64,000 nucleotides of DNA from an uncultured virus (IMG/VR IMGVR_UViG_3300031884_000004). Its lineage: Duplodnaviria; Heunggongvirae; Uroviricota; Caudoviricetes. Below, in pieces: positions 6,143 through 53,445 of the stretch (positions are counted from its first letter, which is position 1; every line of letters begins with the position of its first letter). The translations under genes were made by a program, and so were the position numbers. Location: the IMG/VR virus record IMGVR_UViG_3300031884_000004. One strand, given 5' to 3'. Under the pieces are notes generated by a model. That model searched no databases, was not told the DNA's origin, and saw only the letters and a list, made by a program, of their open reading frames with translations.

Positions 6143-6979
6143 TTAGTAATCCAGTTTCTCTATAGTAAAGGGATATTTAGCCTCTTTATAAAAAGCCTTA
6201 CGCTGGGTTAAATGCCTCTTTGCAAACTTACACGTACTAGTAACGTCCCAAATCTGCACGTGGTCTTTGTCTTCTGCTTTTCTTATGCCACGACCAATGC
6301 TCTGTATAACTCGTACAAATGATTTGCCTGGTTCGATGAGAACCAAATTAAAGATTCGAGGAATGTTGATGCCCACAGCCGCAACACCATATGTAGCTAC
6401 AATTATCTTATCATCACTGATCGCAACCTCATCGTATTCTTCTTTGCGTTCTGTTAGTTTTGTTCCACCATTAACAAACACTGAATTTTGTAGTCTGCTG
6501 ACTAGTTCTTTACCTGCATTTACTCTATCAACCAAAACCAATGTGTTGCCTGTTTTATTGACGGCTCGTACAAGATCAGCGATTTTGTCTAAACGATGGC
6601 CGTCCTCTAGTAGAAACTTTAACTCGCTTTGATAGTTTGTAAACTCCGAAGTATCTTTAAGCTGCACTATGTTAACGTGACAACTTGCAAGAACACCTCG
6701 ATCTTGTAGCTCACTTGCTGCTAACTTCCCGATGACTGGCCCAAGAGATACTAGAATCGAAGCGCGATCCATTTCGGCTTTAGGTATGGTACCGGTTAAT
6801 CCCCAGCGAATAGGAACATCAGCGAATACCCCAGTAAGCATTTGCTTGAGAACATCAGCTTTTGCCATGTGACAGTTGGATACTACTGCACCGTCAACTA
6901 TGTAATTATGATCATTTTCAATGTGGAGATTGAACACTTCGTCAGGTTTATCAATTTCGGTTTTTCTTATTAGCTTCAT
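6143..6979 (-). CDS. uvsW: split-intein C-fragment (35 aa, 6875-6979) fused to the C-terminal half of a UvsW-like SF2 helicase
   Basis: MKLIRK...VFNLHIENDHNYIVDGAVVSN|CH, then GLTGT, GINIP and QSIGRGIR helicase motifs III-VI. Confidence 0.9.
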   Translation of the reverse strand: MKLIRKTEIDKPDEVFNLHIENDHNYIVDGAVVSNCHMAKADVLKQMLTGVFADVPIRWGLTGTIPKAEMDRASILVSLGPVIGKLAASELQDRGVLASCHVNIVQLKDTSEFTNYQSELKFLLEDGHRLDKIADLVRAVNKTGNTLVLVDRVNAGKELVSRLQNSVFVNGGTKLTERKEEYDEVAISDDKIIVATYGVAAVGINIPRIFNLVLIEPGKSFVRVIQSIGRGIRKAEDKDHVQIWDVTSTCKFAKRHLTQRKAFYKEAKYPFTIEKLDY

Positions 6980-7892
6980 ATAACTTCCTTATCTTTGTTG
7001 CGGTTTTTTCATCAAATCCAGAGAGGTCGGAAGGGCAGCTATTATTCAATAGCCATTCCCGTGTTGCGACAATGACACTAAACCCATTTTGATCTGCCCA
7101 CTCTTTAAGGGCAACCATTTTTGCGTCAAATATCTTACCTCGGCATAACTCCGTCGGCTTCACTTCTACTACCTGTTTGGTTTTATAATCAACAAAATCA
7201 ACTATGTATATTTTTCGATTACCGTTGATAATGTATTCTAATCTCAATGTTTCATACGCTGCATCCTGATACATATACTGAAACAACGCTTCCCAACTCG
7301 ATCTATATTTCTTTCTGTTAAACGTTGCTTCCCAGTGCGTGTTTCTATTGTTGGAATTTGGGGTAAAGTCTCCATATAAAATTTTATCCTTCATTATATC
7401 CGATCGGAATTTTTTATCCTGGTCAGACATTTTTACACCATACATACCGTTTGCTTCCCCGCTATTTACTCTAGCAGCAACCCGACTGTCGGTTTGTTTA
7501 GTCAAACCCTTCGCCCAAGAAGTTTGTAGTCCTGTTTTCCCTTTATTCCACGGCACACCTGTATTTAAATTGCGACTACTAAGTTCAGGATGTAATTTAT
7601 GAACGGCTTCGCCACCAATTGCAGCAAGCTTAGCCTTGACTTCCCGATCAGATATTAATCCGGATAGAAGCAAATCCATATTCTTCACCCAAAGATCAGT
7701 CTTGGAATTCATTACCCTCTTTTTAAAATTATTAAACTCGGGCTGTATTAATATCTCGCCGGTTGATAATTCTAGTGTTGATTTTCCAAAAGTAACGACC
7801 CTTACCTGTTGGTTATGTTCTGCTAGTCGCTTGTTTAACCGATCTTTCCATTGTTCATATGTAATTTTCATGAATACTCCTGCCTTAGCCAT
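6951..7892 (-). CDS. free-standing homing endonuclease (NUMOD-like repeats plus TnsA-like PD-(D/E)xK domain); likely start at 7871
   Basis: PWNKGK, WAKGLTK and GEANGMYG motifs; YRSSWE...YIVDF...VEVKP; located between the split-intein halves. Confidence 0.75.
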   Translation of the reverse strand: MAKAGVFMKITYEQWKDRLNKRLAEHNQQVRVVTFGKSTLELSTGEILIQPEFNNFKKRVMNSKTDLWVKNMDLLLSGLISDREVKAKLAAIGGEAVHKLHPELSSRNLNTGVPWNKGKTGLQTSWAKGLTKQTDSRVAARVNSGEANGMYGVKMSDQDKKFRSDIMKDKILYGDFTPNSNNRNTHWEATFNRKKYRSSWEALFQYMYQDAAYETLRLEYIINGNRKIYIVDFVDYKTKQVVEVKPTELCRGKIFDAKMVALKEWADQNGFSVIVATREWLLNNSCPSDLSGFDEKTATKIRKLYEANKKNRN

Positions 7893-7898
7893 ATGTAT

Positions 7899-8924
7899 TT
7901 ATGTTTTATTTACTATTTCGTGATTTTCAGTAAGTTCGTCAGCCCGGCACCAGCCTAGATTTGTTAGAAATTGATGATTTCCAGTAACCCTAATTACACG
8001 TCCGTTATCAAATTCCATCTCATACATTTTTTCAGTGGACGACACAGTAAGATTGTGCTGTTGTTTTACCACTGTATCTTCCTTGAAGGTTCCGGACTGT
8101 TCACAATAATTGATTACTTTATCTCCGGCTTTAATGTCCTTGATGGGTACATATCCAACCGGGGTTAGCACCACTGATTCTCCGTGAAAACATTCATCAA
8201 CCATGACACAAACAACATCATCAAAGAAAAAGTCTTCCATATCAGGATCCTTGTTAGGATCTTGTTCAGCTTTAACCTTGAGCAAATTGTTCAGTGATTG
8301 CCATGTACAGATGGTATGTGTTTTACCGTAATCCTTTCGATCACCAAAGTACACGCCTACCTCAAGTTGAAGATTTTTGTAATCTGCTTCGGTTTGTACT
8401 ACCAACGACTTGTTGGGAACAACTACGATAGATCGACCATATGGCTCAATACTTTTAGACAATGCGGCTGTCATTAATGTCTTGCCAGCGCCTGTTGCTA
8501 TTTCTTGAAGTGACTGTGGATTGGCTAAAAAGTTATTGACGATTTCCACTTGATAATCACGCAGAATTATAGGTTGACCTTCACGTTCATGTCCGGCGGG
8601 CCAGCATATGTTAGCAAAAGTATTCTCGTTTATCAGGTCAAACTTTAGGTCTAAGTGATTTTTTCTCTTGTCGTCTAGTACTATGTCATAGCCGTAATCG
8701 ATTAGTATCGGAATGATTTCATCCAGTAGATTTAGATAGGTACTCCCTGCTAAAGAAAAATAGCTGATCTTACCATTCCATCTACCCAATCGAACTGCTG
8801 GTTGATATCTGGCACCGGGCTTCTCGTACTCAAATTTTTTCATGAGAGCGCGCCTTACATCTAACTCAAGTCCTAAAATTTTAACGTTTACTTCGTCCTT
8901 AATTTCTATTGTTGCTGTTTTCAA
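7899..8924 (-). CDS. uvsW: N-terminal half of a UvsW-like helicase fused to a split-intein N-fragment (97 aa, 7902-8192)
   Basis: LRDYQ, ATGAGKT (Walker A), VMVDE|CFHGES (intein block A), TGNHQF (block B TxxH). Confidence 0.9.
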   Translation of the reverse strand: MKTATIEIKDEVNVKILGLELDVRRALMKKFEYEKPGARYQPAVRLGRWNGKISYFSLAGSTYLNLLDEIIPILIDYGYDIVLDDKRKNHLDLKFDLINENTFANICWPAGHEREGQPIILRDYQVEIVNNFLANPQSLQEIATGAGKTLMTAALSKSIEPYGRSIVVVPNKSLVVQTEADYKNLQLEVGVYFGDRKDYGKTHTICTWQSLNNLLKVKAEQDPNKDPDMEDFFFDDVVCVMVDECFHGESVVLTPVGYVPIKDIKAGDKVINYCEQSGTFKEDTVVKQQHNLTVSSTEKMYEMEFDNGRVIRVTGNHQFLTNLGWCRADELTENHEIVNKT

Positions 8925-25274: not shown

Positions 25275-26351
25275 TTACATACTGTAAAAAGTAATTACCG
25301 TATTAGCAATATATTCAATTTCATTGTCCGTAAGCTCGGGATATATAGGTAAACTTAATACACCTCTAGTAAGCATCACGCCGGTACTAATGAAATCTGG
25401 CTTGACTAAGTTCTTTGCAATAGGAAGTTCACTTAGAGCATAAGGATAATGAACTTTCGTTTCTATACCATTTGTATTAAGGTAAGCTGCTAATTCATTC
25501 CGACGGTCGGTTTCAATAACAAATTTTTGATCCATATGAAACATGAAGTCTCTACTTAGACAGCGCAGGGGCAAATCCTTAAATGCATTCAAGTAATATT
25601 GTCTAATTTTCTTTCGACGGATTTGCCATCCGTCTATATATTTGGATCTGACTAATAGGTGCGAGCAATCTATTTCGCTCATCTTACTATTAGTACCTGC
25701 GCATTCATGTCTCTTTCCGCCATTAGACACATAATCTTTAGCAAACTTATAAATTTCTATGTCATTAGTGACGATGGCACCACCATTACCAGAGGCATTT
25801 AGATTTTTAGTAGGATCAAAACTAATTGCCATAGCGATACCTATGTTACTAGGATCTGCTAACCAATGCTGGGCGCCATCTACTATTATATGAGTATCTG
25901 CAACTTGCTCAAATTTAGCTAAGCTTCTACTGCCGGCGGCGCCGTATAATCCTACGTAACAAGTATGTATGTTGTGCGGGAATTCTGTTATCAATCCGTT
26001 TTTATCAACATCGACTAATTCCACATTCCATCCTGCAGTCAAAAAAGCGTTGAGAGTTGCAGGATATGTCAGATTAGGAATGCGAATAGTATCTGATACT
26101 GGATAGTGATATTCTTTTTCTACATTCAATTCGGCTCGGGCAATAATCTCTAGTGCTTGTGTTCCGGAATGAGTTACCAACGCGAATTCGGCACAGCATC
26201 GGTCCCGCAACCAAGCTTCAAACATTTCAGTTTGCGGCCCGGAAACAAGGATTCCTTCCTTAAGGGCATCGTGAGTTGCTGATGCTAACTCATCCTTAAG
26301 ATTGTTGTACTGTCTTGCTAGACCAGTAAAGGGAACTTGTAAGATACTCAT
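25275..26351 (-). CDS. DegT/DnrJ/EryC1/StrS sugar aminotransferase
   Basis: SGTQAL, DGAQ, SFDPTKNL (PLP Lys), GNGGA and LSLPIYP motifs. Confidence 0.9.
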   Translation of the reverse strand: MSILQVPFTGLARQYNNLKDELASATHDALKEGILVSGPQTEMFEAWLRDRCCAEFALVTHSGTQALEIIARAELNVEKEYHYPVSDTIRIPNLTYPATLNAFLTAGWNVELVDVDKNGLITEFPHNIHTCYVGLYGAAGSRSLAKFEQVADTHIIVDGAQHWLADPSNIGIAMAISFDPTKNLNASGNGGAIVTNDIEIYKFAKDYVSNGGKRHECAGTNSKMSEIDCSHLLVRSKYIDGWQIRRKKIRQYYLNAFKDLPLRCLSRDFMFHMDQKFVIETDRRNELAAYLNTNGIETKVHYPYALSELPIAKNLVKPDFISTGVMLTRGVLSLPIYPELTDNEIEYIANTVITFYSM

Positions 26352-27270
26352 AGTATCGTTGGAATCCTTCTTCGATATCTATTTTTGGATTAAAACCAAA
26401 ATCTCTTTGCGCCGCAAAGGTGTTGAGAGACCCTCTACTAGGATAATTTTGATTTTTGGGATTGATGACAATATTGCCTTTACCTGCAATTTTTATAGCT
26501 AACTCAGCAGCTTCCAGTAGACTACGGCTTTGGCTTCGTGTTATATTGTAAGTTTTATTAGCAGTGTTTTCACTTAATGCTGCTCCCACTATGCCGGCGG
26601 CAGCATCTTCTACATAAGTAAAATCCAAATGTTCTTTTGAGCCGTTAACATTTAAAGTCTCACCCCTGATGGCAGCTAACATGAACTTAGCAACCACTCT
26701 ATCTTCAACGTCACGAGGGCCATATACTGCACTAGGGCGAACAATCGTGTGATCAAAGTACCCGTGTGCAGTGCAATCTTGTACTATTTTTTCCCCTGCG
26801 TGTTTTAGAATACCGTATTGACCTTGCGGGTTACATAGCGCTGTTTCTGGTACATTTTCAACAAAATCTCCATATACCATACTGCTGCTGACGTTTACGA
26901 ATCGGGTTACTTTATGCTCTCGACTAAGTTCGCACAGATTCACTAATCCTTCTATCATCGTTCTTGCACCCATAATAGGATCAGCGCTTACCGTCTTTTG
27001 TCTAGGAAAGCTGGCTAAGTGAATTACTATGGTGGGACAATGTGTTTGAAAAACCTTATTAAGTACTTTAGATTCTATATCTAAACGATAGTTTGCATTA
27101 GTTTTTATAAACTGACTGCGTTCTTTCTGAAGTGAGAACAGTTCTTTCCATGGAATGCTATCATAATTTGTACAGTTATCAACTATGACAACTGAATGAC
27201 CCAGATGTTCTAACTGTTGAACAACGTTATGGCCTATAAAACCATATCCGCCAGTTACTAAGACTTTCAA
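26296..27270 (-). CDS. NAD-dependent epimerase/dehydratase
   Basis: VTGGYGFIG, SSSMVYG, YGILK (YxxxK) and DFTYVED motifs. Confidence 0.9.
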   Translation of the reverse strand: MKVLVTGGYGFIGHNVVQQLEHLGHSVVIVDNCTNYDSIPWKELFSLQKERSQFIKTNANYRLDIESKVLNKVFQTHCPTIVIHLASFPRQKTVSADPIMGARTMIEGLVNLCELSREHKVTRFVNVSSSMVYGDFVENVPETALCNPQGQYGILKHAGEKIVQDCTAHGYFDHTIVRPSAVYGPRDVEDRVVAKFMLAAIRGETLNVNGSKEHLDFTYVEDAAAGIVGAALSENTANKTYNITRSQSRSLLEAAELAIKIAGKGNIVINPKNQNYPSRGSLNTFAAQRDFGFNPKIDIEEGFQRYYEYLTSSLYWSSKTVQQS

Positions 27271-30469: not shown

Positions 30470-31114
30470 ATGTGTATTTATTGTGGTACAAACAAGTACC
30501 GTAATATCTATGAACATCACTACGGTCCAATTCCTAAGGAAGAGTCGGGTCGGTCATATGAAATACATCATATAGACGGAAATCATTCCAATAATAATCC
30601 TGCTAACTTGAAATGTGTATCTATACAAGAACATTACAACATTCATTATTCACAGGGTGATTGGGCAGCTTGTGTAAAAATGTCAAGTAGGATCAACTTA
30701 CTTCCCGATGAGCTAGTAGCCCTCGCAACAAAAAATGCTAACAAGCTAGTTAAAACGGGCAAGCATCCTTGGGTTGGGCCCAACAAGCACCAAGCGCAAC
30801 TAAACAGAGACCGCATTCTTAATGGAACACATAATTGGTTGGACAGGGAAGCTGCCAGTAAACGACAATTAAACAGACTTGCTGCCGGGACTCATCATTT
30901 TGTTAATGACCCCAAGAAAAAAGAAAAACATCCGCAGTATGACCATACTGTTAGAACTTGGAAAAATCGTATGACCGGGGAGGTAGTATCAATGACGAAT
31001 TATCAATTAAGGACATGTTATAATCTCAAGTCCGGTGCAATTAGTCGTATTGTAAATAACAAAGGACTTAACGCTACTGGAGGGTGGGAACTAGTAAGAC
31101 CTAGCCCCACTTGA
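30470..31114 (+). CDS. HNH homing endonuclease with GTH-x-F repeats (the only credible plus-strand gene)
   Basis: EIHHIDGNHSNNNPANL...EHYNIH; GKHPW, GTHNW and GTHHF repeats. Confidence 0.85.
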   Translation: MCIYCGTNKYRNIYEHHYGPIPKEESGRSYEIHHIDGNHSNNNPANLKCVSIQEHYNIHYSQGDWAACVKMSSRINLLPDELVALATKNANKLVKTGKHPWVGPNKHQAQLNRDRILNGTHNWLDREAASKRQLNRLAAGTHHFVNDPKKKEKHPQYDHTVRTWKNRMTGEVVSMTNYQLRTCYNLKSGAISRIVNNKGLNATGGWELVRPSPT

Positions 31115-40565: not shown

Positions 40566-41228
40566 TTATTTTAAGACCCTACACTTATCGAAATGGTATC
40601 GATGCATGTTAGTTTTTCCGCCAGTTTTGTTGCAATGCGGACAAGTTACCTGAATTTTATTTGGATGATTCGTAAGAAAGTGGTGAGTTCCATTCTCTAA
40701 CAATGTTTTCTGAACATTTCGTTGAAATTCTCCGTTCCCCATTAAATGATGAGTCCCGTTCTCCACCAACCTTTGTTGAGTTCTTCTTTGTATATCACCA
40801 CTAAGAAAATGGTGAGTTCCTTCCCTCACTCGCTTAGCGTTAGATTTTCTTTGAACTTCTCCTCCAGAGAAAGCATTCGTCCCGTTTTCAGTTTGTCTGA
40901 GTACACTGTCTTTTCCTAACGATGACCCATCTGGCCTTTTTAAAAAGTGATGTGTGCCGTTTGCGATGCGGTTGGCGCCGGTTAATTTGGCGAGGTCTGA
41001 TAGTTCCTCTGGCGTCAACCGTAGCTTTCTTGAAATGAGCCAACATGCACCATAATCTCCTTGCTGATAATGAATATCGTAATGATCTTGTATAGACAAT
41101 GCGATTAAATTTTCCGGTACATTATTATTGCGGTTACCATCTATATGATGAACATCGCAACTTCTTCCGTCACCGTCTTTGGGTATGGGACCAAAATTCT
41201 GTTCGTAAATTTTACGATAAATAGACAT
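40566..41228 (-). CDS. HNH homing endonuclease with five GTHHF-type repeats and C-terminal CPHC Zn motif
   Basis: DVHHIDGNRNNNVPENL...DHYDIH; start at MSIY inferred from the AGGAG SD and alignment with its paralog. Confidence 0.85.
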   Translation of the reverse strand: MSIYRKIYEQNFGPIPKDGDGRSCDVHHIDGNRNNNVPENLIALSIQDHYDIHYQQGDYGACWLISRKLRLTPEELSDLAKLTGANRIANGTHHFLKRPDGSSLGKDSVLRQTENGTNAFSGGEVQRKSNAKRVREGTHHFLSGDIQRRTQQRLVENGTHHLMGNGEFQRNVQKTLLENGTHHFLTNHPNKIQVTCPHCNKTGGKTNMHRYHFDKCRVLK

Positions 41229-41293
41229 GCTGATAGCTCCTTCTAGCATTAGAGTGAGTGGGGATTGCAGTCCCGCGACTCACATCTATTTAT
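41229..41293 (-). promoter_or_regulatory. conserved structured leader of HNH gene, copy 2
   Basis: ATAAATA-GA-TGTGAGTCGC-GGGACTGCAATCCC-CACTCACTCTAA-TGCTAGAAGGAGCT-ATCAGC-ATG. Confidence 0.75.
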
Positions 41294-41296
41294 GCT

Positions 41297-42778
41297 TTAA
41301 GAGCAGACTTTTACCCCATATAGTAGCTGGAACCGATCAGCATCTGCCCGGTCATTTACCATAGGCTCACCTCTAATATTTAGGGATGTATTAAGTAGCA
41401 TTGGACAGCGTGTCTCATTATACCAACGTTCTAAGAGTCTTCTGATTCCCGAACCGTCTTTCGGTACTGTCTGTACACGAGAAGTCCCGTCAGCGTGAAC
41501 GATAGCAGGAAATAAGTCAGGAGCCCTACAAGGAGCGATGACTTGCATATACCTACTGTTGTTCCAACCGCAAGGCATATTAAAATAATCGCCACATAGT
41601 TCCTCCAGAATGACCGGCGCAAAGGGTCTGAACTGCTGTCTTCGCTTGATTTCATTTACTGTATCCTTTATATCAGGGCCGCGTGGATCTGCTAATAGTG
41701 AACGATTGCCTAATGCTCTAGGACCGAATTCGGCTCGTCCGCTAGCAACACCAACCATCTTCTTAGTATACAATTGGTTAATTACATTGTTAATAGGATA
41801 TTTGCCTTTTATATTATATCCTAAAAAGGCATCGACCCAATTTACTCGTTTTCCATAACCTAATGCAGCAGCACCCAATGAGTTTCCTGCATCACCCGGA
41901 TTAGGCATGATCCAGATGTTATCGAAGTATCCGCCTAGATTACGATTTGCTGCACAGTTGAGTGCGACTCCTCCACCAAAAACAAGATTATGACTTTTAC
42001 CGATATTAATAGCTTTTGCTATGACATGGTGTATCAAACTTTCAGTAAGTTCTTGAGTAGATGAAGCTATATCCATATTATCAGCATCTTTGAGGAAATC
42101 ATCTCTCACCCCGGTATGTAGATTTTCTTTGAAAGATAATGTACCACTATTATGAATCAACGCTTTTTGAATCGTATTAACATGAATAGGTTTACCGTAA
42201 GCAGCCATTCCCATAAGAATATATTCTTCATCTAATGGCTTCAGTCCTACTTTCGCAGTCATAGCAGAATAGAATAAACCGATAGAATCTGGATATTGCT
42301 TTCCCCAAAGCCTCTTATATACGGCTCTACCGTTATCATCATAATACGCATCCCAGATAGTAATCGTATCTAACTCGCCGATAGCATCAATAATGACTAC
42401 AGTAGCATGGTCAAATGGACTAGTTTGAAAACCAGCAGCAGCATGAGATAAGTGATGATTGTGTGTTTTCACTTCTCCGTCATGGCTAAAACGAACCATC
42501 ATGTTTTTACCGATGACATCCTTTGCAGAGAAAGGTCCTAACTTCTGTCCAGCTCTGAGCTGGCGGATTACCTTTAACCAAGGCTTCTCATAATAATGAA
42601 GCTCATAATGCCCATCTATATATTTGTGGGCATCTTTTAATAAGCCTAAACAAAGATCAGCGTCATGCTTCTTCTTACTGTATCGTTCACTGTGGCCGGC
42701 GTATAGGATATTGCCAGCATCATCAATGACACTCAATCCAGCGTCGTGAAACCCGCAACTGACACCTACATAATTCAT
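41297..42778 (-). CDS. carbamoyltransferase (NodU/CmcH family)
   Basis: HDAG, HHLSHAA, GGVALN, EFGPRALGNRS, FRPFAP and LNTSLN motifs. Confidence 0.93.
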   Translation of the reverse strand: MNYVGVSCGFHDAGLSVIDDAGNILYAGHSERYSKKKHDADLCLGLLKDAHKYIDGHYELHYYEKPWLKVIRQLRAGQKLGPFSAKDVIGKNMMVRFSHDGEVKTHNHHLSHAAAGFQTSPFDHATVVIIDAIGELDTITIWDAYYDDNGRAVYKRLWGKQYPDSIGLFYSAMTAKVGLKPLDEEYILMGMAAYGKPIHVNTIQKALIHNSGTLSFKENLHTGVRDDFLKDADNMDIASSTQELTESLIHHVIAKAINIGKSHNLVFGGGVALNCAANRNLGGYFDNIWIMPNPGDAGNSLGAAALGYGKRVNWVDAFLGYNIKGKYPINNVINQLYTKKMVGVASGRAEFGPRALGNRSLLADPRGPDIKDTVNEIKRRQQFRPFAPVILEELCGDYFNMPCGWNNSRYMQVIAPCRAPDLFPAIVHADGTSRVQTVPKDGSGIRRLLERWYNETRCPMLLNTSLNIRGEPMVNDRADADRFQLLYGVKVCS

Positions 42779-42782
42779 GCTA

Positions 42783-42884
42783 TTATTTGTATATAAAGGG
42801 ATCTCTTTTTCTTAGTTCTTTAATCCTTTTTCTATATAGAATCTCACGTTTAATCTTATTGATTAATGTTCTTATAAAATGCAT
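42783..42884 (-). CDS. 33-aa basic peptide (ends KELRKRDPFIYK)
   Basis: manually translated; AAGGG SD; fills the gap before the carbamoyltransferase. Confidence 0.55.
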   Translation of the reverse strand: MHFIRTLINKIKREILYRKRIKELRKRDPFIYK

Positions 42885-42909
42885 TGTTATTCCCTTATCA
42901 TTAAATCTA

Positions 42910-43914
42910 TTAATGGTATCCTAATCTATATTCATCTAAAATAGAAAACAATCGGTCTTGTAATAGTGCTTTATATTCTCGCATATCTATTACTTGTTTT
43001 AATTCTTTACAACATGGATGTTCGAATAGATAGTGTGCTGAACTGATAAAGCGGTCTTTGTCATTATCTACATCAACCGTACACCATTTTTTATAATATC
43101 CTGATTCTATCACAACATCAATGAACTTAGTTAATTCTTTTGTACCCAAACCCAATGTATATAACACACTACTAGCTACAGTACCGAGTTGCGGAGCAAT
43201 ATTTAATGCATCCACTCCTGTATTTTTACGTAACTTTACTTGGTCAACTGTAAGGTAGTCAGCGTTGTGTTCTTTGAACATGTAACCATTCTGATGTATT
43301 ACATTTATCAGTTTTTGTGTTTGTTCTACATTGAACGTACCTACTTGAGTTTGTTTAGTCAAGCTTCCAGTCTGGGAAACAATATAACATATATTATTTT
43401 GCCAAGGCTTGACATACTCTAGTTGCATATTCAACATGTTCAAGGTTTCTGTCGTATTACCAGTGTTGTCTTCGGTACCGAATTCAAACATAATTTTCGG
43501 ATTCAATGCCATAGCATAAGAAAACAACTTTTCTGCAACAGCACGTTGTTTGTCAGTCTCGACTCTGCTCACGTCAATATGAATTAGGTAGAATTTTGCA
43601 TCGACATCAGCTTTGATCGTATTCATGCATCGTTCTATTACCGTTTCGAGGTCTAGATTTTTGTCTGCATCACTAAAGTAAGGTCCGCAGTGGTCTCTAC
43701 ACAGCAATATTCTATCTCGGTCATAATACTCACTATTGAATACTAGGTCAGATAGTTCTTTAGTGTTCATAGCATAGCCACTATCATAGTCTACTTGATT
43801 GCGACTAGCAATAATCATTAGTGGATAGTCGTTCTGATGACTATAGCTGAGACATAGCTCAACTATTTCTTTGCTCATCGGACCTATACCTAAATTAAAT
43901 CGTTTCAAGTCCAT
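42910..43914 (-). CDS. GatZ/KbaZ-like (tagatose-bisphosphate aldolase accessory/epimerase) protein
   Basis: IASRNQVD..GY, CRDHCGP, IHID, EFGTE, KEHNADY and NIAPQLG motifs. Confidence 0.7.
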   Translation of the reverse strand: MDLKRFNLGIGPMSKEIVELCLSYSHQNDYPLMIIASRNQVDYDSGYAMNTKELSDLVFNSEYYDRDRILLCRDHCGPYFSDADKNLDLETVIERCMNTIKADVDAKFYLIHIDVSRVETDKQRAVAEKLFSYAMALNPKIMFEFGTEDNTGNTTETLNMLNMQLEYVKPWQNNICYIVSQTGSLTKQTQVGTFNVEQTQKLINVIHQNGYMFKEHNADYLTVDQVKLRKNTGVDALNIAPQLGTVASSVLYTLGLGTKELTKFIDVVIESGYYKKWCTVDVDNDKDRFISSAHYLFEHPCCKELKQVIDMREYKALLQDRLFSILDEYRLGYH

Positions 43915-43934
43915 CGATCATTCTTTCATATAGA

Positions 43935-44483
43935 TTATAGTTGGCGCCACCACCAACCTTTGATCATCTTTTCAATATATAAACATGCATCAAGAACTGC
44001 GCCGCTAGCAGCATCACTCGGTGTCACATACTTAGCACTAGTTCTCGCTTCAATTCTAGCACTCTTAGGTGCGATGCCTAGAGCTACTTTTTTTAATATA
44101 ACAGCATCATGATATCCATCTGCGATATATGCGGTTGTGTTGAAATTACAATTTTCTATAAACCATTCTAGTCTAGATTCTTCCGGAACTAAGACTAACT
44201 GATCATCCCGATACTTCCAATCAGTGACAATTCTTGCGTAAGTGATGTCAAATCCAGTCTTATCCGCAGTAATAAAAGTGATATCATTTATATACTTACT
44301 GATCAGCTTGAGACCATCTCTGTCATGCGGTCCGAAAACTTTAAAAGTTTTGCCTAAATTGTTGTACAGCATGTGTCCGGATGTTAATACACCATCAACA
44401 TCGATAATGAGTTTATCTATAATCATTTCCTGTAGCCTCGTTAAATTGATCAATCGTGATATGCATACCAGTATATATCTCAA
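43935..44483 (-). CDS. KdsC-like HAD phosphatase (start likely 44426)
   Basis: IDVDGVLTSG...FKVF..HD; YIADGYHD. Confidence 0.8.
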   Translation of the reverse strand: MRYILVCISRLINLTRLQEMIIDKLIIDVDGVLTSGHMLYNNLGKTFKVFGPHDRDGLKLISKYINDITFITADKTGFDITYARIVTDWKYRDDQLVLVPEESRLEWFIENCNFNTTAYIADGYHDAVILKKVALGIAPKSARIEARTSAKYVTPSDAASGAVLDACLYIEKMIKGWWWRQL

Positions 44484-45171
44484 ACTGCTTTAGAAATTGA
44501 TGGGCATAAAAACTCAGACCACTTATATACTTTACTTGACTCTGCAAACTTTGTTCATATAAAATAGTTTTACGTAGTGCTAGATCAATTACGCATCTTG
44601 TTTTATCAGGAACTGATAGCAATGGTGATGCCTCTTCACTCGTCCCTAAACTAGTACAATTGATTATAATGTCAGCCGGTTCATGTCTGTCATGCCAGTT
44701 GTTGTTTTTTCTGCTATACATATTGACATTCATATAATCGTTTTCGATGAGATAATGATAGAACATCTGTCCTATCGATCCGTCACCTAGTATCAAAATC
44801 TTATCATCGATTGAAATCTCAGATATGATACCCATCAATCCGTATATGTCACAATTGTAGCCAACGGTATGTCCATTATTCACAGCTATGGTATTGCAAA
44901 TACCATACTTATGTGCTAGACTATCTAGATTATCACACAGATAAGTTACAGTGTTCTTATATGGCATACTCACGCTAATACCATATGTAGTATGATCGCT
45001 TGTTAAGTGCTTGAAAGTATCTTCGAACTCGTTTGGATTACAAGCTAAAGCCGTATAGGTTGCGTCAATGCCAAACTTATCAAAAAACAAATTGTAGTAA
45101 TAAGTTCCGGTTTTGCCAGGATATTGACTTAGACTATAAAACTGCTTCATTGCTAGAGTATTTAGTTTCAT
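44413..45171 (-). CDS. shikimate-dehydrogenase-like oxidoreductase (start likely 45150)
   Basis: SVSMPYK, CNTI, GYNCDIYG, ILGDGSIG and INCTSLG motifs. Confidence 0.8.
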   Translation of the reverse strand: MKLNTLAMKQFYSLSQYPGKTGTYYYNLFFDKFGIDATYTALACNPNEFEDTFKHLTSDHTTYGISVSMPYKNTVTYLCDNLDSLAHKYGICNTIAVNNGHTVGYNCDIYGLMGIISEISIDDKILILGDGSIGQMFYHYLIENDYMNVNMYSRKNNNWHDRHEPADIIINCTSLGTSEEASPLLSVPDKTRCVIDLALRKTILYEQSLQSQVKYISGLSFYAHQFLKQFEIYTGMHITIDQFNEATGNDYR

Positions 45172-46726
45172 ACTCTTGGAACAATTTTATACCTAAGTAC
45201 CAGAGAAATTTGTCGAAGGGACTAGTATGTAATGGAGACATATTCCAAAATATAATAGGAATCAATAATTCCACTTTCTTCCACTCTAACTGTTTTTCAT
45301 TCACAAACTTTTTTAATAGGGTGAAATACTGTTCGTGGTTATCTATATAAGGAATCTCTAAAGTAACATGATTGTTTTTAATATCAACCTTGAAGTTGTT
45401 CTCTTTGATCTTACTATAATTTATGATGAATCCGCCGGCGAGTTTTGCTAAGTCATAATATATGTCGCCGGTGTTGGTATTACCTGCAAAATCAGGGCGC
45501 CAATCGATGAGCTTGAAGTCTTTACCTATTACGATATTATCAAACTGCAAATCACCGTGTATATAAGATGCTTGCACTGTCTCAGTAAGATAAGAATAGT
45601 CGATGTTGTTTAGGTAATATGCATAGTCCTTTACGTCAACACCGTTAATACTGCTAACCTTTTCTTGTGTGTTATACTTGGTCAAGTATTTTTCGATCCT
45701 ACCTAATGTCTTATTTTTATAAAATTCTATGCATTCATCTTTGATGTCAACATCAGCCCGGTGCCAGACATTATTGTCTAACCAATTCAATAGACTATTG
45801 AAATGCTCAACATCATTGTGTTGGTATAATGTTTTTCCTGAATACCAATCGTATGCTAGATAGTTGCCAACAATCTTGCAATTGTCGGGATATATTCCAT
45901 CATGATCTAGCGTTCGTTTATATTTGTTCTCAGTGATAGTTTTATTCGCCCACCATTTGATAACTTTAGAATCGGTTATGTAGGTGATCTCATCTTCTTT
46001 ACTAAAGTCAAATTTTTGGCTGCTATTAACTGCATTCGCATAACTCTCTATATTGCCAAAATCGATCCAACTGTCTAGGTTAACAATAGACTCACCTTTT
46101 TCTATAACAAAGATAAACTCATTATTGTTTAGTTCGGTTAACCGGGTGATGAAATCTACATGATCACCTAGATACATCACGCCAGTAAAAGCAACATAAT
46201 CAGCAGGGCAGTGTTCTTTAAACACCATATCAGTGATCGTCAAGTTGTCTAATTTGAACATAGTGTATAGGTCAGATAAATCTTCACTTACCTGTTTAGT
46301 GAAATAGTAGTTTTTACTTGTATCTTTGATCTCTGATATCAAGTCTGTATCGAAATAAGTGTCACACGGTATGTACCAGAATGGTTTATCTAATAGGTTA
46401 GTACATTTTTTCAGTGTGTAGGCAGTACCACTCCGACTAGAGGTATAGTCATCGATATCAACAAATGTGATATTTACATCATCATGTGCTACTGTGCAAT
46501 AGTCTTTAACCTGCTGGCTCAGATAACCAACAGGAATGATGAAGTGCGTGTCTTTGGGAAACTGATCTATTATGTGTGATAGAAACGGTTTATTCTTGTA
46601 GGGCAACAGTGCTTTGTTTAGATTCTTAGTCAGATTGCCCATCCTAGAGCCTATACCGGCTGTAGGTATAACTACTGTGTTAACGGTGCTCATGCTGTAT
46701 TCTACCGTGCGTTCTATTTTGATCAT
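45134..46726 (-). CDS. sugar nucleotidyltransferase fused to an APH/choline-kinase-like domain (start likely 46693)
   Basis: IPTAGIGSRM...NKALLP; HGDLQFDN, IDWR and YDLAKL motifs. Confidence 0.85.
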   Translation of the reverse strand: MIKIERTVEYSMSTVNTVVIPTAGIGSRMGNLTKNLNKALLPYKNKPFLSHIIDQFPKDTHFIIPVGYLSQQVKDYCTVAHDDVNITFVDIDDYTSSRSGTAYTLKKCTNLLDKPFWYIPCDTYFDTDLISEIKDTSKNYYFTKQVSEDLSDLYTMFKLDNLTITDMVFKEHCPADYVAFTGVMYLGDHVDFITRLTELNNNEFIFVIEKGESIVNLDSWIDFGNIESYANAVNSSQKFDFSKEDEITYITDSKVIKWWANKTITENKYKRTLDHDGIYPDNCKIVGNYLAYDWYSGKTLYQHNDVEHFNSLLNWLDNNVWHRADVDIKDECIEFYKNKTLGRIEKYLTKYNTQEKVSSINGVDVKDYAYYLNNIDYSYLTETVQASYIHGDLQFDNIVIGKDFKLIDWRPDFAGNTNTGDIYYDLAKLAGGFIINYSKIKENNFKVDIKNNHVTLEIPYIDNHEQYFTLLKKFVNEKQLEWKKVELLIPIIFWNMSPLHTSPFDKFLWYLGIKLFQEYETKYSSNEAVL

Positions 46727-47129
46727 CCTGAAGCCTTATCACATCATCAAGTTCTGTTGTACTTGCTTCAAAGAATTCAAGGTCTGTAATAGCAACGACA
46801 CGGTGAACATAGCCCGGATGAACGTCGAATGATACTCCAGGTTCAAGTCGAATGATATCAAACGTTGATTCGTATTCAGAAACTTCTTCTGCGGTCATCG
46901 GGTTAGATAGAAAATGTTCTACATCAAATTTTTCTTTGCTTATGTACAATGTTCCTGTACCGGAAAAAACATAGTTGGTTTCGAATTTTTGTTGATGTAC
47001 TTGCAAGCTTGTTCTATTGCCAGCCTTGAAGAATATACGCTTTAGTGCATATGGTGTCCTGACACCATCTGCTATCCAGACTTCATGACCCCAGTGCTTG
47101 ACTACAGTTTTGATTTCATTTATACTCAT
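46680..47129 (-). CDS. cupin (mannose-6-phosphate-isomerase-like)
   Basis: KHWGHE, SLQVH..K.ET, HRV and DDVIRLQDD motifs. Confidence 0.8.
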   Translation of the reverse strand: MSINEIKTVVKHWGHEVWIADGVRTPYALKRIFFKAGNRTSLQVHQQKFETNYVFSGTGTLYISKEKFDVEHFLSNPMTAEEVSEYESTFDIIRLEPGVSFDVHPGYVHRVVAITDLEFFEASTTELDDVIRLQDDQNRTHGRIQHEHR

Positions 47130-47130
47130 G

Positions 47131-48012
47131 TCAAATATTTAGTAACTCATGATCTTGTATGTATTTTAATAATTCATCAGCCCAAACAGTATGACCTAGT
47201 TCATTTGGATGCCAGCCAGTATATCCAGCTTCTCCGCAGTTTTCATCTACATATGTCTTGAATGAATTATTAGTGATGTCTTTGTTATAGTACCTAATAC
47301 TATCTATCGTTTTCCATATAGTGTTATAGTTTATTTTATGAATGATACGGACATCATCATCTGATATACTGATATTACCTAAACCTAAAGAGTTTATCTG
47401 TTCTTCAACATTGATGTCTTGCCACTGATCGATATTAATCTGATTCAATCTATAAAAAGCATTGAAGTTTAAGAATCTGATTTTATTCGTTAGGCAAAAA
47501 TTCTGGAAGTTCAATATTGTAGTAATATACCTAGTAATGTATTCTTCAGGATTCCAAAAATTCAATACATATGTTTTAGTAAGATTGGCTAATGGTTTTT
47601 GTTTATGATCAGTCATGTGCGGATTGAGCCTAAACTTGTAGCTTTCTTTGTCATCATCACTCTTGTACCAAAAATCTCTGCGTTCCGGCGTAGTCCAACC
47701 TACTATGATAAACAGACGATCCGGGTTTATACCTTGGTTTAGTAGGTGCAAAACATATTCTTGCGTCCTAGCTAAGATACTAGCATTATCATCTCCGGGT
47801 TCAGCTAGGTTTATCACACGACATCTCAATAGTTCTGCTAGCTTAGTTGGCCATATCCGCGGTAATCTATAACTATCATTCTTAGGAAGATAGTCGATAG
47901 TAGTCAGATGATTACCTGGATGTTTTTGTACTAAAGCAGGATCTACTATCTCACACCCGAACGTCCAGCTATCACCGTTCGTTATCAAAATCAATTCATC
48001 AGGTGTAGCCAT
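47131..48012 (-). CDS. SGNH-like hydrolase
   Basis: NGDSWTFG, NLAEPG and HPNELGH motifs. Confidence 0.7.
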   Translation of the reverse strand: MATPDELILITNGDSWTFGCEIVDPALVQKHPGNHLTTIDYLPKNDSYRLPRIWPTKLAELLRCRVINLAEPGDDNASILARTQEYVLHLLNQGINPDRLFIIVGWTTPERRDFWYKSDDDKESYKFRLNPHMTDHKQKPLANLTKTYVLNFWNPEEYITRYITTILNFQNFCLTNKIRFLNFNAFYRLNQINIDQWQDINVEEQINSLGLGNISISDDDVRIIHKINYNTIWKTIDSIRYYNKDITNNSFKTYVDENCGEAGYTGWHPNELGHTVWADELLKYIQDHELLNI

Positions 48013-48802
48013 TCTCTAATAACCTTTCAATTATCAACTGTGCAGTATATTCATGTGCTGGATAATCTGCATGCTGACTTCCTATAGTATCAGGATATTG
48101 TAGAGTCAGCTCTCCCCAATTATGATGTATCAAATCTTTTTTAGGTATCAGATCATCGAACTTATCGTCACTTGCAAGCACTAAGCAATGTATATCACTG
48201 TTTGTTATTCTAGTGTATGCAGACAGTATCAACCCTCTATCATAATCAGATTTGATATTATTGTTAGACCAAACAGTTAGATAATGTTCTAATAACATTT
48301 TTAGTTTTTCAGGTGATTGTGAATGTAGACGTTGGTAATAATCGCTAGGCATTTTCTTTTGTTTTTCTAATGTCTGTAGATAATCAGGTATCGCCCCGAC
48401 CTGCTCAGTGAGCAACTTTGGATTATAGCTTGCATCATCTTTTAGATAAAAATCTAACGGTCGATCATGATGCGGTTGTGCATGATGATGCGGCGGATAC
48501 TGATGGTAGTTCAAATGTGATAGGTCTAATGTTATATGCTTTTGAAATTCGTCTTCTAACCATTCGATCCTATCATAACTAGTTACACATAAAATAACGC
48601 ACTTTGGTTTGGACAGCATCTTACTAGCATATACACCTTGGAGGAATACTGCATAATTAGACGCACTGCCCCTAGCTAATACGACCAAATCATATTCTAA
48701 CTTATCTGCGACAAGTTGACCATACCGTTGTTTTTCCATATCAACTAGTCCAATGCCGACATTGAAACTATCACCGCACACCACGATCTTTTCTTTATTC
48801 AT
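47999..48802 (-). CDS. SGNH-like hydrolase
   Basis: CGDSFNVG, ARGSASN and HADYPAH motifs. Confidence 0.65.
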   Translation of the reverse strand: MNKEKIVVCGDSFNVGIGLVDMEKQRYGQLVADKLEYDLVVLARGSASNYAVFLQGVYASKMLSKPKCVILCVTSYDRIEWLEDEFQKHITLDLSHLNYHQYPPHHHAQPHHDRPLDFYLKDDASYNPKLLTEQVGAIPDYLQTLEKQKKMPSDYYQRLHSQSPEKLKMLLEHYLTVWSNNNIKSDYDRGLILSAYTRITNSDIHCLVLASDDKFDDLIPKKDLIHHNWGELTLQYPDTIGSQHADYPAHEYTAQLIIERLLENGYT

Positions 48803-49589
48803 AGATGTTATTAAACTCCTGATATAAATGCTCTGCCCATCTTCTGTGACCTTCTATCATAGTATGATGATCAGCAGCCATTGGAATTTGATTAGCTACG
48901 CAAAAAAGACTCATCACATTTAATGATTCATCACATGAACGTGTATTCAGAATGCATGGTTTCTGCAATACTGAAATTTCTTGTTCAAATTGTTTTGATA
49001 TATTAATTTTTTTATATTCCGGTAACCATACTGTTCGCCACGGCAGACTACTAAAAAACAAGTACTTTACACCTAAGTTTTCTAATAGATTTTTCATAAT
49101 ATACATTTCTTGAAAAAATCTGATGTAATTGGCACGAAGTGAATATACATTCAAAATATAGTCTTTCTGCCAGTCATCAATAAGTTTTAAATAATCATTA
49201 CTAAAGTCAGGTCTAAAGAGTACATCATGCGAACTTACCGGCTGCGTAGCATTAAACATACACCACCCCTCTTTCTGTCCTTCGTGTAAATAGACTTCAC
49301 TCCTATCTACAGTTGTCCAGCCTAACATAACTACTAATGAACTATATTTTTCTTTAGGATACTTTCGTAGAAAGTCACATGTAGTTCTAACCATACGTGC
49401 ATTGCTTCCTGCACCAAGAGCTTCATTTATATGATCAACTCCAAACTTTTCTGCGACTACCGACGGCCAGGCACATTTCAAAAAATAGTTCCATCTTTCT
49501 ATTAATGGTATGTTTGATAAGCTCGGATCATCATCGATACCGTTTCCTGCTGTCCAGCTACATCCGTTAGCATATAAAAAATCAATCAT
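48795..49589 (-). CDS. SGNH-like hydrolase
   Basis: NGCSWTAG, GAGSN and HTMIEGH motifs. Confidence 0.7.
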   Translation of the reverse strand: MIDFLYANGCSWTAGNGIDDDPSLSNIPLIERWNYFLKCAWPSVVAEKFGVDHINEALGAGSNARMVRTTCDFLRKYPKEKYSSLVVMLGWTTVDRSEVYLHEGQKEGWCMFNATQPVSSHDVLFRPDFSNDYLKLIDDWQKDYILNVYSLRANYIRFFQEMYIMKNLLENLGVKYLFFSSLPWRTVWLPEYKKINISKQFEQEISVLQKPCILNTRSCDESLNVMSLFCVANQIPMAADHHTMIEGHRRWAEHLYQEFNNIYE

Positions 49590-50410
49590 CTTATTGTTCC
49601 GTATAATTTATTCTCATTGTTATCCCGAAAAACCTTATATATTTCTTCTTCTGATATAGAACTATAATGTATTAAATCATTCATAAAACACTCACGAAAA
49701 TTTGTCATAGGATCAAACATATAAGACTCATAACGATATATCGTGTAACAAACTAAATTAGTTTTGCTCAATGGTTGATTTATAATTCCCCTATTTTGTA
49801 AAAATCTGTTTAATGCAGCAGATGAATCATGCACTGAGTGTCCAGGCTCTTTGACCAGATCAATCATAATATCAGCAACATTGCTGTTTGTAACCCAAAA
49901 AACATCAGCTAATATATTATCACAGTGCGGGTCACTATAAATCGTCGATTTGGATAAGTCTATGTTAGATAGCTCACTTCCAAAGTTTTTAGCTGTAGGA
50001 AATATAACATCAGGACGGATCTTTATGACTACATCATATTTAAAATTGTTCTCTATCTCGTACTGCCTTTAAAGCTCAAAGCTTCTACAAAGAGTATGCC
50101 ATACTATAGGAAATTGGTTATTAGTCATATGACTATTCATGAACTCTGAATAACTATCTACTTTGTATCTTATCGGATTATATAATTCGATAAATTTCTG
50201 TAATTTTTCTTGAGATAAGGCTTCATCCGGGCGTTGAATAAATCGAATATTATTCCAATGTGTTCTAGCAAACGGTTTATTAGTTTCATAATCCCAGGTG
50301 TGCAGGAAAAAATCACAATCCGGCAGCATATCTCCTAAGTAACGGGTGATGTTAACATAACAGTTTATCCCTGTTCTGATCAATCCACTGAAACACACAG
50401 CAATCTTCAT
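49586..50410 (-). pseudogene. glycosyltransferase-like gene with an in-frame TAA at 50069-50071
   Basis: MKIAVCFSG..R; frame continues *RQYEIENNFKYDVVIKIRPD into ORF 49586-49867; paralog reads LKRQYEIEHNFEYDVV. Confidence 0.75.
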
Positions 50411-51273
50411 CTGAATAGATTTCTTTCTACTTGTAGTATTGCATCTGCGTCTTGCGGTAAACTATACAATTCTGCTGCCTTTTTCCTAAATATATAAGTG
50501 TTAAATATTAGGTTTGTTTCTTGTACTCTTATATTCTTTAGCATAAGCCATTTATATAAGCAGACATTATATCCGCATATTTTTATATAAGGATCATTCC
50601 AGTTAGCATCTAATAATTCCCAGAATTTACCTGTACTATAGTATCTATAAAAATCACAAACAGTATTCATCACCCTACTTGAACCGAAGAATAACACATC
50701 AGTAAAATGATTCTGCCAATATTCCATCGGGAATGTATTTGTCGAACCATATATTGCAGTTGGTTCTATTCTACCTGGTAAGTAATCCTCAAACTTTGTA
50801 CCCGGTGTATAATAACTATCATGCCTTGCTCTGACAACTAGATCAAAACGCATGTCATTTTCTATTTCATACATAGTTTTGAGCCAGTTAGCCTGCATGA
50901 TACTGTAGCTCATGTGAACGTATACTGTAGGTTTAGCTAGGTTAGCTGCTACTTTCATACCAAAAGTACATTCATCAAAACTTAATACGCTTGGTATCGG
51001 AGTGACATCGATTACAGTTTTATCTTCGATCAATAATTTTTCGTAGTTTATAGCTGATATCATATTCTGGTATAGCTCGTCCTTAGGATAAGATTCACAT
51101 TTCTCTATACCATAAAATCTATGTTCTTTCGTGTATTCACTGTCTGTCCACGTGTGTCCAAAAAACTTTATGTCATGGATATCACTCTTGAAAAATTCAA
51201 GTATATTCTCGCTACAATGGTTCCATGTGCGAGGCTCTCCGCTCAGACACACTGCTATTTTATATGACTTCAT
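50407..51273 (-). CDS. putative glycosyltransferase (IAVCLSG..R family)
   Basis: KIAVCLSGEPR, HTW and FDLVVRARHD motifs. Confidence 0.65.
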   Translation of the reverse strand: MKSYKIAVCLSGEPRTWNHCSENILEFFKSDIHDIKFFGHTWTDSEYTKEHRFYGIEKCESYPKDELYQNMISAINYEKLLIEDKTVIDVTPIPSVLSFDECTFGMKVAANLAKPTVYVHMSYSIMQANWLKTMYEIENDMRFDLVVRARHDSYYTPGTKFEDYLPGRIEPTAIYGSTNTFPMEYWQNHFTDVLFFGSSRVMNTVCDFYRYYSTGKFWELLDANWNDPYIKICGYNVCLYKWLMLKNIRVQETNLIFNTYIFRKKAAELYSLPQDADAILQVERNLFR

Positions 51274-52060
51274 ATGATGCTAACTCTTTCTTGATATCAA
51301 GATATTCTTGGCTTCTCAATATCTTTATACTCTGAGGACAACTGACGTTTTTTATTCCACTAGCACATAAAAAAGGATATAGTGCAACTTCCGGCGCCGG
51401 CGGGGGACATTGTATGTGCGGGGGCACCACATGATTACTATCGATAAACTGCAATGAATGAATAAATTCTGCTGCTTGGTCATACGTATAGCTATCAGCA
51501 AAATGAAACGTGTCACCGATCATAAATGATTCTACATTATCCACGTATCCGTTGCTCTTAGAATATAAACAGTTGGGACGAACTTCACGGGGCATGTTTA
51601 GATTTTCCATGAAGTATAGATCAGTCCGCATCCTAAACACAACATCATATTCGAAGTTGTGTTCGATCTCATATTGTCGTTTTAGATTAGCAGCATAATA
51701 TATACTATAATACTGGCTTCTACACCACCATCCTATCGGATTATTCACATACTCAGTTAGTATACTAGGATCTTTGTCGAACAGTGTTGGATTGACATTT
51801 CTATTATCAAACTTGTATTTCTTTGGCTGATATGTATCTATGATATCTTGTTTTTCTTCTTCAGTGATATGTACGTCTTTGAGGGAACGGACACCAGACT
51901 GTAATACTATCGTAGGTAAAGTATTATAATCCCATAGATGAAAGAAAATATCTTTCTCTACATTAGGTAACAAATGTTCTATCCAATTTGAATATGTCTT
52001 TTTCCATGTCCTCGGCTGACCACTTATGCATAGTGCTACACGCATCACATATTCTTCCAC
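51260..52060 (-). CDS. putative glycosyltransferase (VALCISG..R family)
   Basis: RVALCISGQPR, HLW and YDVVFRMRTD motifs. Confidence 0.65.
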   Translation of the reverse strand: MEEYVMRVALCISGQPRTWKKTYSNWIEHLLPNVEKDIFFHLWDYNTLPTIVLQSGVRSLKDVHITEEEKQDIIDTYQPKKYKFDNRNVNPTLFDKDPSILTEYVNNPIGWWCRSQYYSIYYAANLKRQYEIEHNFEYDVVFRMRTDLYFMENLNMPREVRPNCLYSKSNGYVDNVESFMIGDTFHFADSYTYDQAAEFIHSLQFIDSNHVVPPHIQCPPPAPEVALYPFLCASGIKNVSCPQSIKILRSQEYLDIKKELASYEVI

Positions 52061-53442: not shown

Positions 53443-53445
53443 ATT

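Follow-up and report, generated by a model that had tools for sequence, protein, structure and literature searches.

Phage genes broken in two by a naturally split intein, with a nuclease gene lodged between the halves, are already known. According to Dassa et al. 2009 (PMC2677866), such fractured genes comprise three open reading frames (ORFs) on one strand—an N-extein with the N-terminal intein half (IntN), a nuclease, and the C-terminal intein half (IntC) with the C-extein—and include gp41-1, NrdJ-1, IMPDH-1, NrdA-2, DnaE, ligase and terminase. Here we describe a fracture of the same layout in uvsW, the gene for an SF2 repair helicase, of an uncultured lake-water giant phage (Caudoviricetes; IMG/VR record IMGVR_UViG_3300031884_000004). 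It lies in a stretch of 64,000 nt, referred to below as the window, and the genome assembly examined spans 123 kb. The sole uvsW gene of this phage is split at its Walker B motif. In our judgement it is very likely that class 1 trans-splicing joins the halves to form a helicase of 487 aa, and that the gp4/TnsA-like nuclease encoded between them spreads the element by cutting empty uvsW alleles.

The locus falls within the dimensions given for the described fractured genes (PMC2677866): the spacer to the likely nuclease start at 7871 is 27 nt, against a range of 27-51 nt, and the overlap of nuclease and C gene is 29 nt, against 6-69 nt. In that study a hairpin with a TATAAATA-type box precedes the nuclease; the window has the box, within an inverted repeat that may form such a hairpin. 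Nuclease-less alleles exist in both. The nucleases of that study are GIY-YIG or Vsr-like, whereas the one in the window is gp4/TnsA-like, a variant feature rather than one that defines the layout. The gp41-1 intein is only distantly like that of the window (phmmer E 0.34). Npu DnaE (PDB 4kl6) shares the conventional split point of about 100 + 35 aa, the Ser-Asn end and Cys+1-type chemistry, and its block F reads D-H-N; it differs in host gene and family, at F4, where the window has Asn in place of Asp, and in lacking the net acidic IntC and the intervening nuclease gene of the window. The split PolB intein of phage MIJ3 (PMC6892783) is likewise a fractured gene in a cultured jumbo phage, but with PolB as host gene, a Ser1 intein and an HNH nuclease. 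UvsW is absent from the text and supplements of Dassa et al. that were searched; neither UvsW nor helicase is mentioned in the main text and six supplements of Pinto 2020 (PMC7090010), and no uvsW intein is described in the accessible parts of PMC3322345, PMC2988022, PMC5259590 and PMC7824862. More generally, a split intein in UvsW was not found in the open literature searched, which covers neither InBase nor subscription journals. The layout is of a known kind; its host gene and the families of its intein and nuclease appear to be undescribed.

All three genes lie on the minus strand, and ORF positions and translations bear out the arrangement proposed in the initial annotation (7899-8924, 6951-7892 and 6143-6979). 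The uvsW N gene (7899..8924; 341 aa, TTG start; UvsW_N, ResIII and Hint; full-length match to phrog_16259, E 4e-62) encodes a 244-aa N-extein (8193..8924) carrying helicase motifs I (TGAGKT), Ia and Ib and ending in the VMVDE half of motif II, followed by the 97-aa IntN (7902..8192) with Cys1 and block B T70-G-N72-H73. With an arrow marking the splice junction, its product ends VMVDE↓CFHGES...TGNH...EIVNKT before the stop codon. The free-standing PD-(D/E)xK nuclease gene (6951..7871; 306 aa from the likely start) fills the gap and overlaps the start of IntC, as had been noted. The uvsW C gene (6143..6979; 278 aa; phrog_9690) encodes the 35-aa IntC (6875..6979), which has a block F with Asn at F4, a His at the F-late position, Ser34 and the terminal Asn35, and the 243-aa C-extein (6146..6874), which begins with Cys+1-His and carries helicase motifs III-VI (GLTGT, ATYGV/GINIP, QSIGRGIR); the product begins MKLIRK...VVSN↓CHMAK. 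A likely ribosome-binding site for the C gene, AAGGAAG (6984..6990), sits within the last codons of the nuclease and survives in alleles from which the nuclease has been deleted (L008, L172). Both intein ends exceed curated NCBIfam cut-offs, intein_Nterm (TIGR01445) at 40.5 bits against 24.5, beginning at residue 245 of the N protein, and intein_Cterm (TIGR01443) at 21.6 bits against 15.6, ending at residue 36 of the C protein, so the intein signal is not a chance one. That uvsW is fractured by a naturally split intein, with a PD-(D/E)xK nuclease between the halves, is supported by profiles, fold, 43 homologous IntN/IntC pairs, the predicted IntN-IntC complex and signs of homing.

An assembly-wide check found only this one uvsW and no second copy. 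Helicase motifs I-VI are all intact across the two exteins, with the break at Walker B, DE↓CH. The C-extein aligns with T4 UvsW (PDB 2oca) from the same CH (E 2.6e-15); the UvsW_N match in the N gene is below the Pfam cut-off (20.9 against 25.3 bits), and uvsX/uvsY-like genes are present in synteny at the locus. The nearest cultured host genes, those of the jumbo phages Phosso, Atu_ph07, PA5oct and the Rak2-like group, are 48-60% identical and uninterrupted.

Alleles with and without the intein bear on how the site was occupied. Among the loci found with the C gene (the best 80 of 598 confirmed), 9/80 carry the intein, 69/80 read DE↓VH, one reads DE↓AH with an altered site (L072) and one has a deletion across the site (L050); among those found with the nuclease alignment (the best 80 of 119), at least one uvsW intein junction is present in 80/80. 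With a pattern permitting C, S or T at +1, all of the true C junctions found are N↓C, and every intein allele has Cys at +1 in place of the native Val. Since the empty alleles of its kin read DEVH, Cys+1 is not native in the clade of the window phage; T4-like phages have a native Cys there (Melville, DE↓CH; T4, 2oca). Most likely, to go by these alleles, the +1 Cys codon travels with the element. The earlier proposal that trans-splicing would rebuild DE-CH is right for the sequence at hand, but the native motif of the clade is DEVH. In one close empty allele (L072:3284-4744), DEAH-SIKGNIL replaces the conserved DEVH-MAKADVL, which could be escape from the nuclease.

The class 1 nucleophiles—Cys/Ser1, block B Thr and His, a terminal Asn, and Cys/Ser/Thr at +1 (PMC4031507)—are all present, as Cys1, Thr-x-Asn-His, the terminal Asn and Cys+1. 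C1, N72 and H73 show no variation across 39 IntN sequences, and neither do M1, N17, H24 and N35 across 34 IntC sequences, whose M1-K2-L3 start is invariant. A class 3 intein, which has Cys at F4 and no Cys/Ser1, is ruled out: the window has Asn at F4 and Cys1 is invariant. Two optional helper positions, Asp at F4 and the penultimate His, are replaced by Asn and Ser. The Ser had been flagged as standing in for the usual His, and it was read correctly, as was Cys+1; it is no anomaly, since the IntC of Npu DnaE also ends with Ser before Asn (...GFIASN) and the penultimate residue among 43 distinct pairs is Ser in 27, Ala in 12, His in 2, and Thr and Lys in 1 each, and we dropped it as a special feature. 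Charge-complementary halves were likewise dropped. The lengths of 97 and 35 aa hold, while the supposed acidic tail of IntN is mild (net -2 over the last 20 aa, -4 over the whole) and the basic start of IntC is confined to its first 6 residues (net -3 overall). A contiguous (cis) form of the Walker B intein was not found, in a weak test: one longer match and two 500-aa matches have a second intein at Walker A.

Structure prediction gave the IntN-IntC complex a score of 0.87, against 0.01 for the best of three controls, with a predicted local distance difference test (pLDDT) of at least 83 for the partners and agreement between runs in at least 96% of contacts; the mark used is reached by 116/157 solved pairs and 2/215 mismatched pairs. 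IntN and IntC are thereby predicted to fold jointly into one HINT domain. Solved inteins are all distant (best phmmer E 1.9e-6, best profile E 1.7e-8), and this distance makes orthogonality of the split intein plausible. Relative to L038, both halves are under purifying selection, with nonsynonymous (dN) and synonymous (dS) divergences of 0 and 0.37 for IntC and 0.087 and 0.46 for IntN. The IntN of the 43 natural variants are 54-85% identical to that of the window.

The nuclease most probably starts at 7871, where AGGAG lies 5 nt upstream and the database protein, also of 306 aa, begins. The first ATG at 7892, which would give 313 aa, was ruled out as start: it is unconserved and 3 nt from the promoter-like box described below. 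Among 511 relatives found, 118 were aligned, in which R190-S-S-W-E194, E207, D225, E236 and K238 are invariant. The NUMOD/TnsA-like label given by the initial annotation draws its support from these relatives: TnsA-like N (PF08722) occurs in 67/118 and NUMOD3 in 50/118, with two distant relatives above cut-off, while the window protein itself has no Pfam match at 0.01. A NUMOD3-like region precedes the catalytic domain. The AlphaFold model (pLDDT 85) has TnsA as its best structural match, at Z 7.9 (root-mean-square deviation 5.0, 137 aligned), a value within the range that the tool calls a possibly common arrangement; Vsr (Z 5.8) and I-Bth0305I (Z 5.4) score lower, and Foldseek also ranks TnsA first, with a probability of 0.99 and an E value of only 0.085. 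The nuclease profile has no sequence match in the PDB. Its most distant relatives are gp4-type head-completion proteins (phrog_218 for the 3 scanned; hhalign 97.6%, E 2.7e-12), and an origin from a gp4 head-completion nuclease would be consistent with that similarity. With Tn7 TnsA and T4 gp4-type nucleases it shares the PD-(D/E)xK fold and the motif RSSWE...E.(L/I)RI.Y...Y(I/V).DF...E(V/I)KP; it differs in having double their length, a GEFTPxxNNR motif and a variable N-terminal and NUMOD3-like region, and its family sits inside split inteins rather than in a transposon or head-gene block. EDxHD/Vsr-like homing endonucleases such as I-Bth0305I resemble it in their restriction-enzyme fold, N-terminal DNA-binding part and fractured-gene setting, but its acidic E...D...ExK site lacks the HD motif. 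Against L038, dN is 0.085 and dS 0.57 (dN/dS about 0.15), again purifying selection.

Signals that may control the nuclease lie at its 5' end. A T4-type late-promoter-like box, CATAAATA (7896..7903, minus strand), contains the TAA stop of the N gene and is present in 34/38 nuclease-bearing pairs. On the minus strand of the assembly, 7/8 copies of YATAAATA have an ORF start at most 60 nt downstream, compared with 4.8% of positions; two copies on the plus strand have no ORF after them. An inverted repeat of 9 bp (7869..7903, minus strand), CATAAATAC and GTATTCATG around a 17-nt loop, is predicted to cover the nuclease ribosome-binding site and start codon; its spacing is conserved among relatives, and the hairpin folds well in two of three relatives (z -4.0, -3.4 and -0.2). 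The 3' arm doubles as a late-promoter box on the opposite strand, and may be read as an antisense promoter or as part of the hairpin and late promoter. A scan for sigma-70 promoters and terminators returned chance-level matches only.

From the layout, the catalytic residues and the intact helicase motifs, a sequence of events can be proposed. IntN and IntC would co-fold into one HINT domain, as predicted; by established intein chemistry, an N-S shift at Cys1 would be followed by transthioesterification to Cys+1, cyclisation of Asn and ligation of DE to CH. In long early transcripts the hairpin would mask the ribosome-binding site and start codon of the nuclease, and late transcripts from the CATAAATA box, lacking the 5' arm, would allow it to be made late. 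During co-infection, as the divergence pattern suggests, the nuclease would cut an empty allele in or close to its Walker B codons, after which repair would copy IntN, nuclease and IntC together with the Cys codon, turning DEVH into DECH. The nuclease would later be lost in some lineages, with the split intein remaining; these states are all seen, and their order is our reconstruction.

Altogether, 43 distinct IntN/IntC pairs share these breaks. The distribution of the element argues for transfer of this kind. Between the window and L038 the element is 85-94% identical in nucleotide sequence (dS 0.37-0.57), compared with 69% and 74% for the exteins, where dS is saturated, and the window C-extein is closer in amino acid sequence to empty alleles (89%) than to L038 (85%). 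Recent transfer between lineages is indicated by this comparison. A quick tree of 115 C-exteins, all longer than 225 aa (59 empty, 56 occupied), requires 9 changes of intein state, at least 3 of them forced by strong branches. Phage S16, too, has 61% of IntN in common with the window, against 24-26% for the exteins. An L038-type nuclease allele (window 6963-7902; 86% identical, with identical ends; called on 131 differences, with 40/40 listed positions agreeing) is present in runs X1, X8 and X18, three of the four runs holding the window phage; with both sister elements in the same samples, two such phages can meet. The nuclease is lost in 5/43 pairs, with gaps of 54, 15, -4, -14 and 186 nt. 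At L152:2421-5223 the N-extein and IntN read through into the nuclease (661 aa), with IntC still a separate gene, possibly an intermediate or a single stop loss.

Some relatives are more elaborate. At L008:469-3900 (also L009 and L174) uvsW is in three pieces: another split intein, with a short IntN and a long IntC, interrupts Walker A (GAGK↓C ... HN↓T) and holds a Vsr/DUF559-like nuclease, and the Walker B split intein has its nuclease deleted; such a gene needs two non-cross-reacting inteins. Walker A inteins also occur in contiguous and mini forms (P0121, P0134, P0139). A weak IntN-profile match near 104077 (+) of the assembly, in a 1034-aa stop-to-stop segment (E 3e-4), may be another Hint domain.

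Homologues of the nuclease extend beyond uvsW. A broader nuclease-alignment scan returned at least 71 loci, near-duplicates included and with host labels checked on 5 proteins. Among the matches listed, 57/57 close loci (E of 1e-8 or less) have at least one split-intein junction directly after Walker B DE, and 49 have both junctions by pattern; the host is UvsW in 37, a clamp loader in 17 and terminase in 3, and 14 weak loci show no split-intein junction. In clamp loaders and terminases the inteins have only 19-31% identity to the window IntN, so that three families of intein are served, at equivalent motifs, by a single family of nuclease. Two clamp-loader nucleases, those of L211 (55% over 146 aa) and L214 (43%), share the catalytic part with that of the window and not the N-terminus. 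In a weakly supported FastTree tree of the nucleases, the clamp-loader (RFC) rows L211, L214 and L241 fall among UvsW rows; host-gene switches at these points are a lead only. The carriers include loci in clamp loaders (L211, L214, L222-L242 and L006, the C gene of L211 having a further intein) and in terminases (L003, L219, L226, L258 and L259, with atypically split inteins whose IntN is 32-53 aa); cultured examples of the clamp-loader and terminase types include Yersinia TG1, phiR1-RT and several coliphages. Inteins have a known preference for P-loop and Walker B motifs (PMC4760082). One nuclease family tied to Walker B across hosts was not found in the open literature searched. We lean slightly towards the broader view that this is an undescribed homing endonuclease family, derived from a gp4 head-completion/TnsA nuclease and specialised for Walker B codons. 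It would have colonised three unrelated families of intein, found in phage ATPases that are themselves unrelated (UvsW, clamp loader and terminase), always right after DE, fracturing them into split inteins, moving to a new host gene by a swap of its N-terminal recognition part, and rewriting DEVH to DECH by importing the +1 Cys codon.

The uvsW element is also present in cultured phages. Ten phage records carry the same intein, site and nuclease family (S16, STP4-a, SEA1, CF-SP2, AKM_NP4, UTK0003 and PM2, some filed twice), and Lak-B2 carries the element at the same site; IntN of the cultured carriers is 56-61% identical to the window and the exteins 23-27%. Salmonella phage S16 (HQ331142, gp114/114.1/115; element at HQ331142.1 104626-107352) and Proteus phage PM2 (MF001355) have the same site as the window, NDE↓C...HN↓CH, with IntC 46-49% and nuclease 36% identical; theirs are the proteins behind PHROGs 16259, 22417 and 9690. 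They differ in having a Straboviridae host gene (24-27% identical), native DECH and a penultimate His, and are annotated only as helicase or hypothetical; neither opened record mentions an intein, and no YATAAATA box was found at the S16 and PM2 elements. Melville, STML-198 and CGG4-1 match S16 in the flanks only. In Melville the gene is whole, an empty DECH allele (MF957259.1 104805-106307) identical to S16 at 58/60 and 60/60 nt on the two sides of the site. The suggestion of a new split intein in a UvsW host therefore stands in that no prior description was found in the literature searched; the intein is not unique, being present and unannotated in S16, STP4-a, SEA1, CF-SP2, PM2 and Lak-B2.

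Several observations weigh against splicing and homing as proposed here. Position F4, most commonly Asp and an aid to splicing steps 1 and 2 (PMC4031507), is Asn in the intein family of the window, and splicing could consequently be slow or yield cleavage by-products. The charge pairing of IntN and IntC (-4 and -3) is weak beside that of the S16 pair (-7/+4), which does not exclude function, because the IntC region of gp41-1 is acidic as well (bioRxiv 546465). The complex score may reflect likeness rather than binding, since split inteins have solved structures. The fold scores of the nuclease are modest. YATAAATA is not enriched in number (8 found, 12.3 expected), and the window copy of the hairpin has 1 mismatch and a z of -1.45, with 19/200 shuffles as good. 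The extein tree was built quickly and on uneven sampling, with empty alleles drawn only from near the window phage, and comparison of empty with occupied alleles detects no flank co-conversion tract past the Cys codon. Finally, the cuts made by free-standing nucleases of phages are often distant from the gene that encodes the enzyme, those of T4 seg nucleases at hundreds to thousands of bases (PMC2988022).

This last point leads to an alternative that we consider unlikely, in which the intein splices but the nuclease cuts elsewhere in rival genomes (marker exclusion or interference competition) or is domesticated, and the element hitch-hikes by ordinary recombination. It gains from the nearest non-mobile kin, the gp4 head-completion nucleases, which are reported to be non-specific DNases (PMC7824862), and from the DNA around DE, which is unlike between UvsW, clamp-loader and terminase sites beyond GAY-GAR. 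It fits poorly with a transferred unit that ends at the splice junctions and with the placement of all 57 close relatives among the matches listed inside an intein at Walker B DE↓C; the N-terminal parts of the nuclease, moreover, vary by host gene around a common catalytic part, as for swapped target-recognition domains.

The trans-splicing step has its own rival, that the halves only associate, through the intein or the helicase interface, and are ligated poorly or not at all, like the fractured NrdA of Aeh1. Fractured phage enzymes can function without ligation (PMC2988022), and Asn at F4, the missing penultimate His and the weak charge pairing would suit such an outcome. We regard it as very unlikely: the nucleophiles are all invariant, the Cys that all intein alleles have at +1, where Val is native, is sensible only if used as a nucleophile, and an unspliced HINT domain would separate the catalytic Glu from the His of motif II.

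The break itself is secure. All 2782 nt of the locus were found in 4 other IMG/VR contigs with 0 mismatches, and a fifth contig covers 1399 nt with 1 mismatch; in run X9 a single contig covers the stretch in one piece, although the runs holding it may be source samples. Contigs with the identical element reach 259-305 kb, and the metagenomes in which it is listed are of lake, freshwater and, in one case, biocathode origin (possibly source samples as well). Identical copies in other assemblies, the spanning X9 contig and the same breaks in the 43 pairs rule out assembly error. That the locus is a pseudogene or artefact, or is repaired at the level of RNA or ribosome by an intron or bypass, as the L152 read-through might suggest in showing that stop codons here can change, is highly improbable given the purifying selection, the identical copies, an Rfam search whose sole match is at chance level (E 0.55), a 27-nt spacer and 29-nt overlap too small for a ribozyme, a C gene with its own invariant M1-K2-L3 start and ribosome-binding site, and nuclease-less alleles in which the two ORFs stay separate, -14 to 186 nt apart.

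Elsewhere in the window, the ORFs at 30470-31114 (+), 40566-41249 (-) and 61713-62381 (-) are free-standing and nuclease-like, two HNH-like and one GIY-YIG-like by eye. A CATAAATA box precedes that at 40566-41249 (-). A large block (25275-27270 and 41297-55649 (-)) carries sugar/glycan-modifying and radical-SAM-like genes, labelled by eye, among them an aminotransferase, epimerase, carbamoyltransferase and nucleotidyltransferase.

A 2025 survey lists LAGLIDADG, HNH, Vsr-like and EndoVII-like enzymes as intein-associated endonucleases, and the element described here adds a nuclease fold to that list. Most stages of the gene-breaking model are found at one site, with the nuclease intact, fused to IntN, reduced to a remnant, or deleted, and the import of the +1 Cys codon suggests a route by which an intein may invade a site without a +1 nucleophile. 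S16, with the element, and Melville, without it, form a cultured pair for a direct test of homing by a fractured-gene nuclease, and the annotation of uvsW is corrected in phages such as S16. Natural split-intein families in use are few, and unrelated new ones are wanted for multi-fragment protein ligation; the family on offer comprises 43 natural variants with small halves (97 + 35 aa). If the broader view of the nuclease holds, the new natural split inteins from its family would number in the dozens, and the three-piece UvsW genes would contribute naturally orthogonal pairs.

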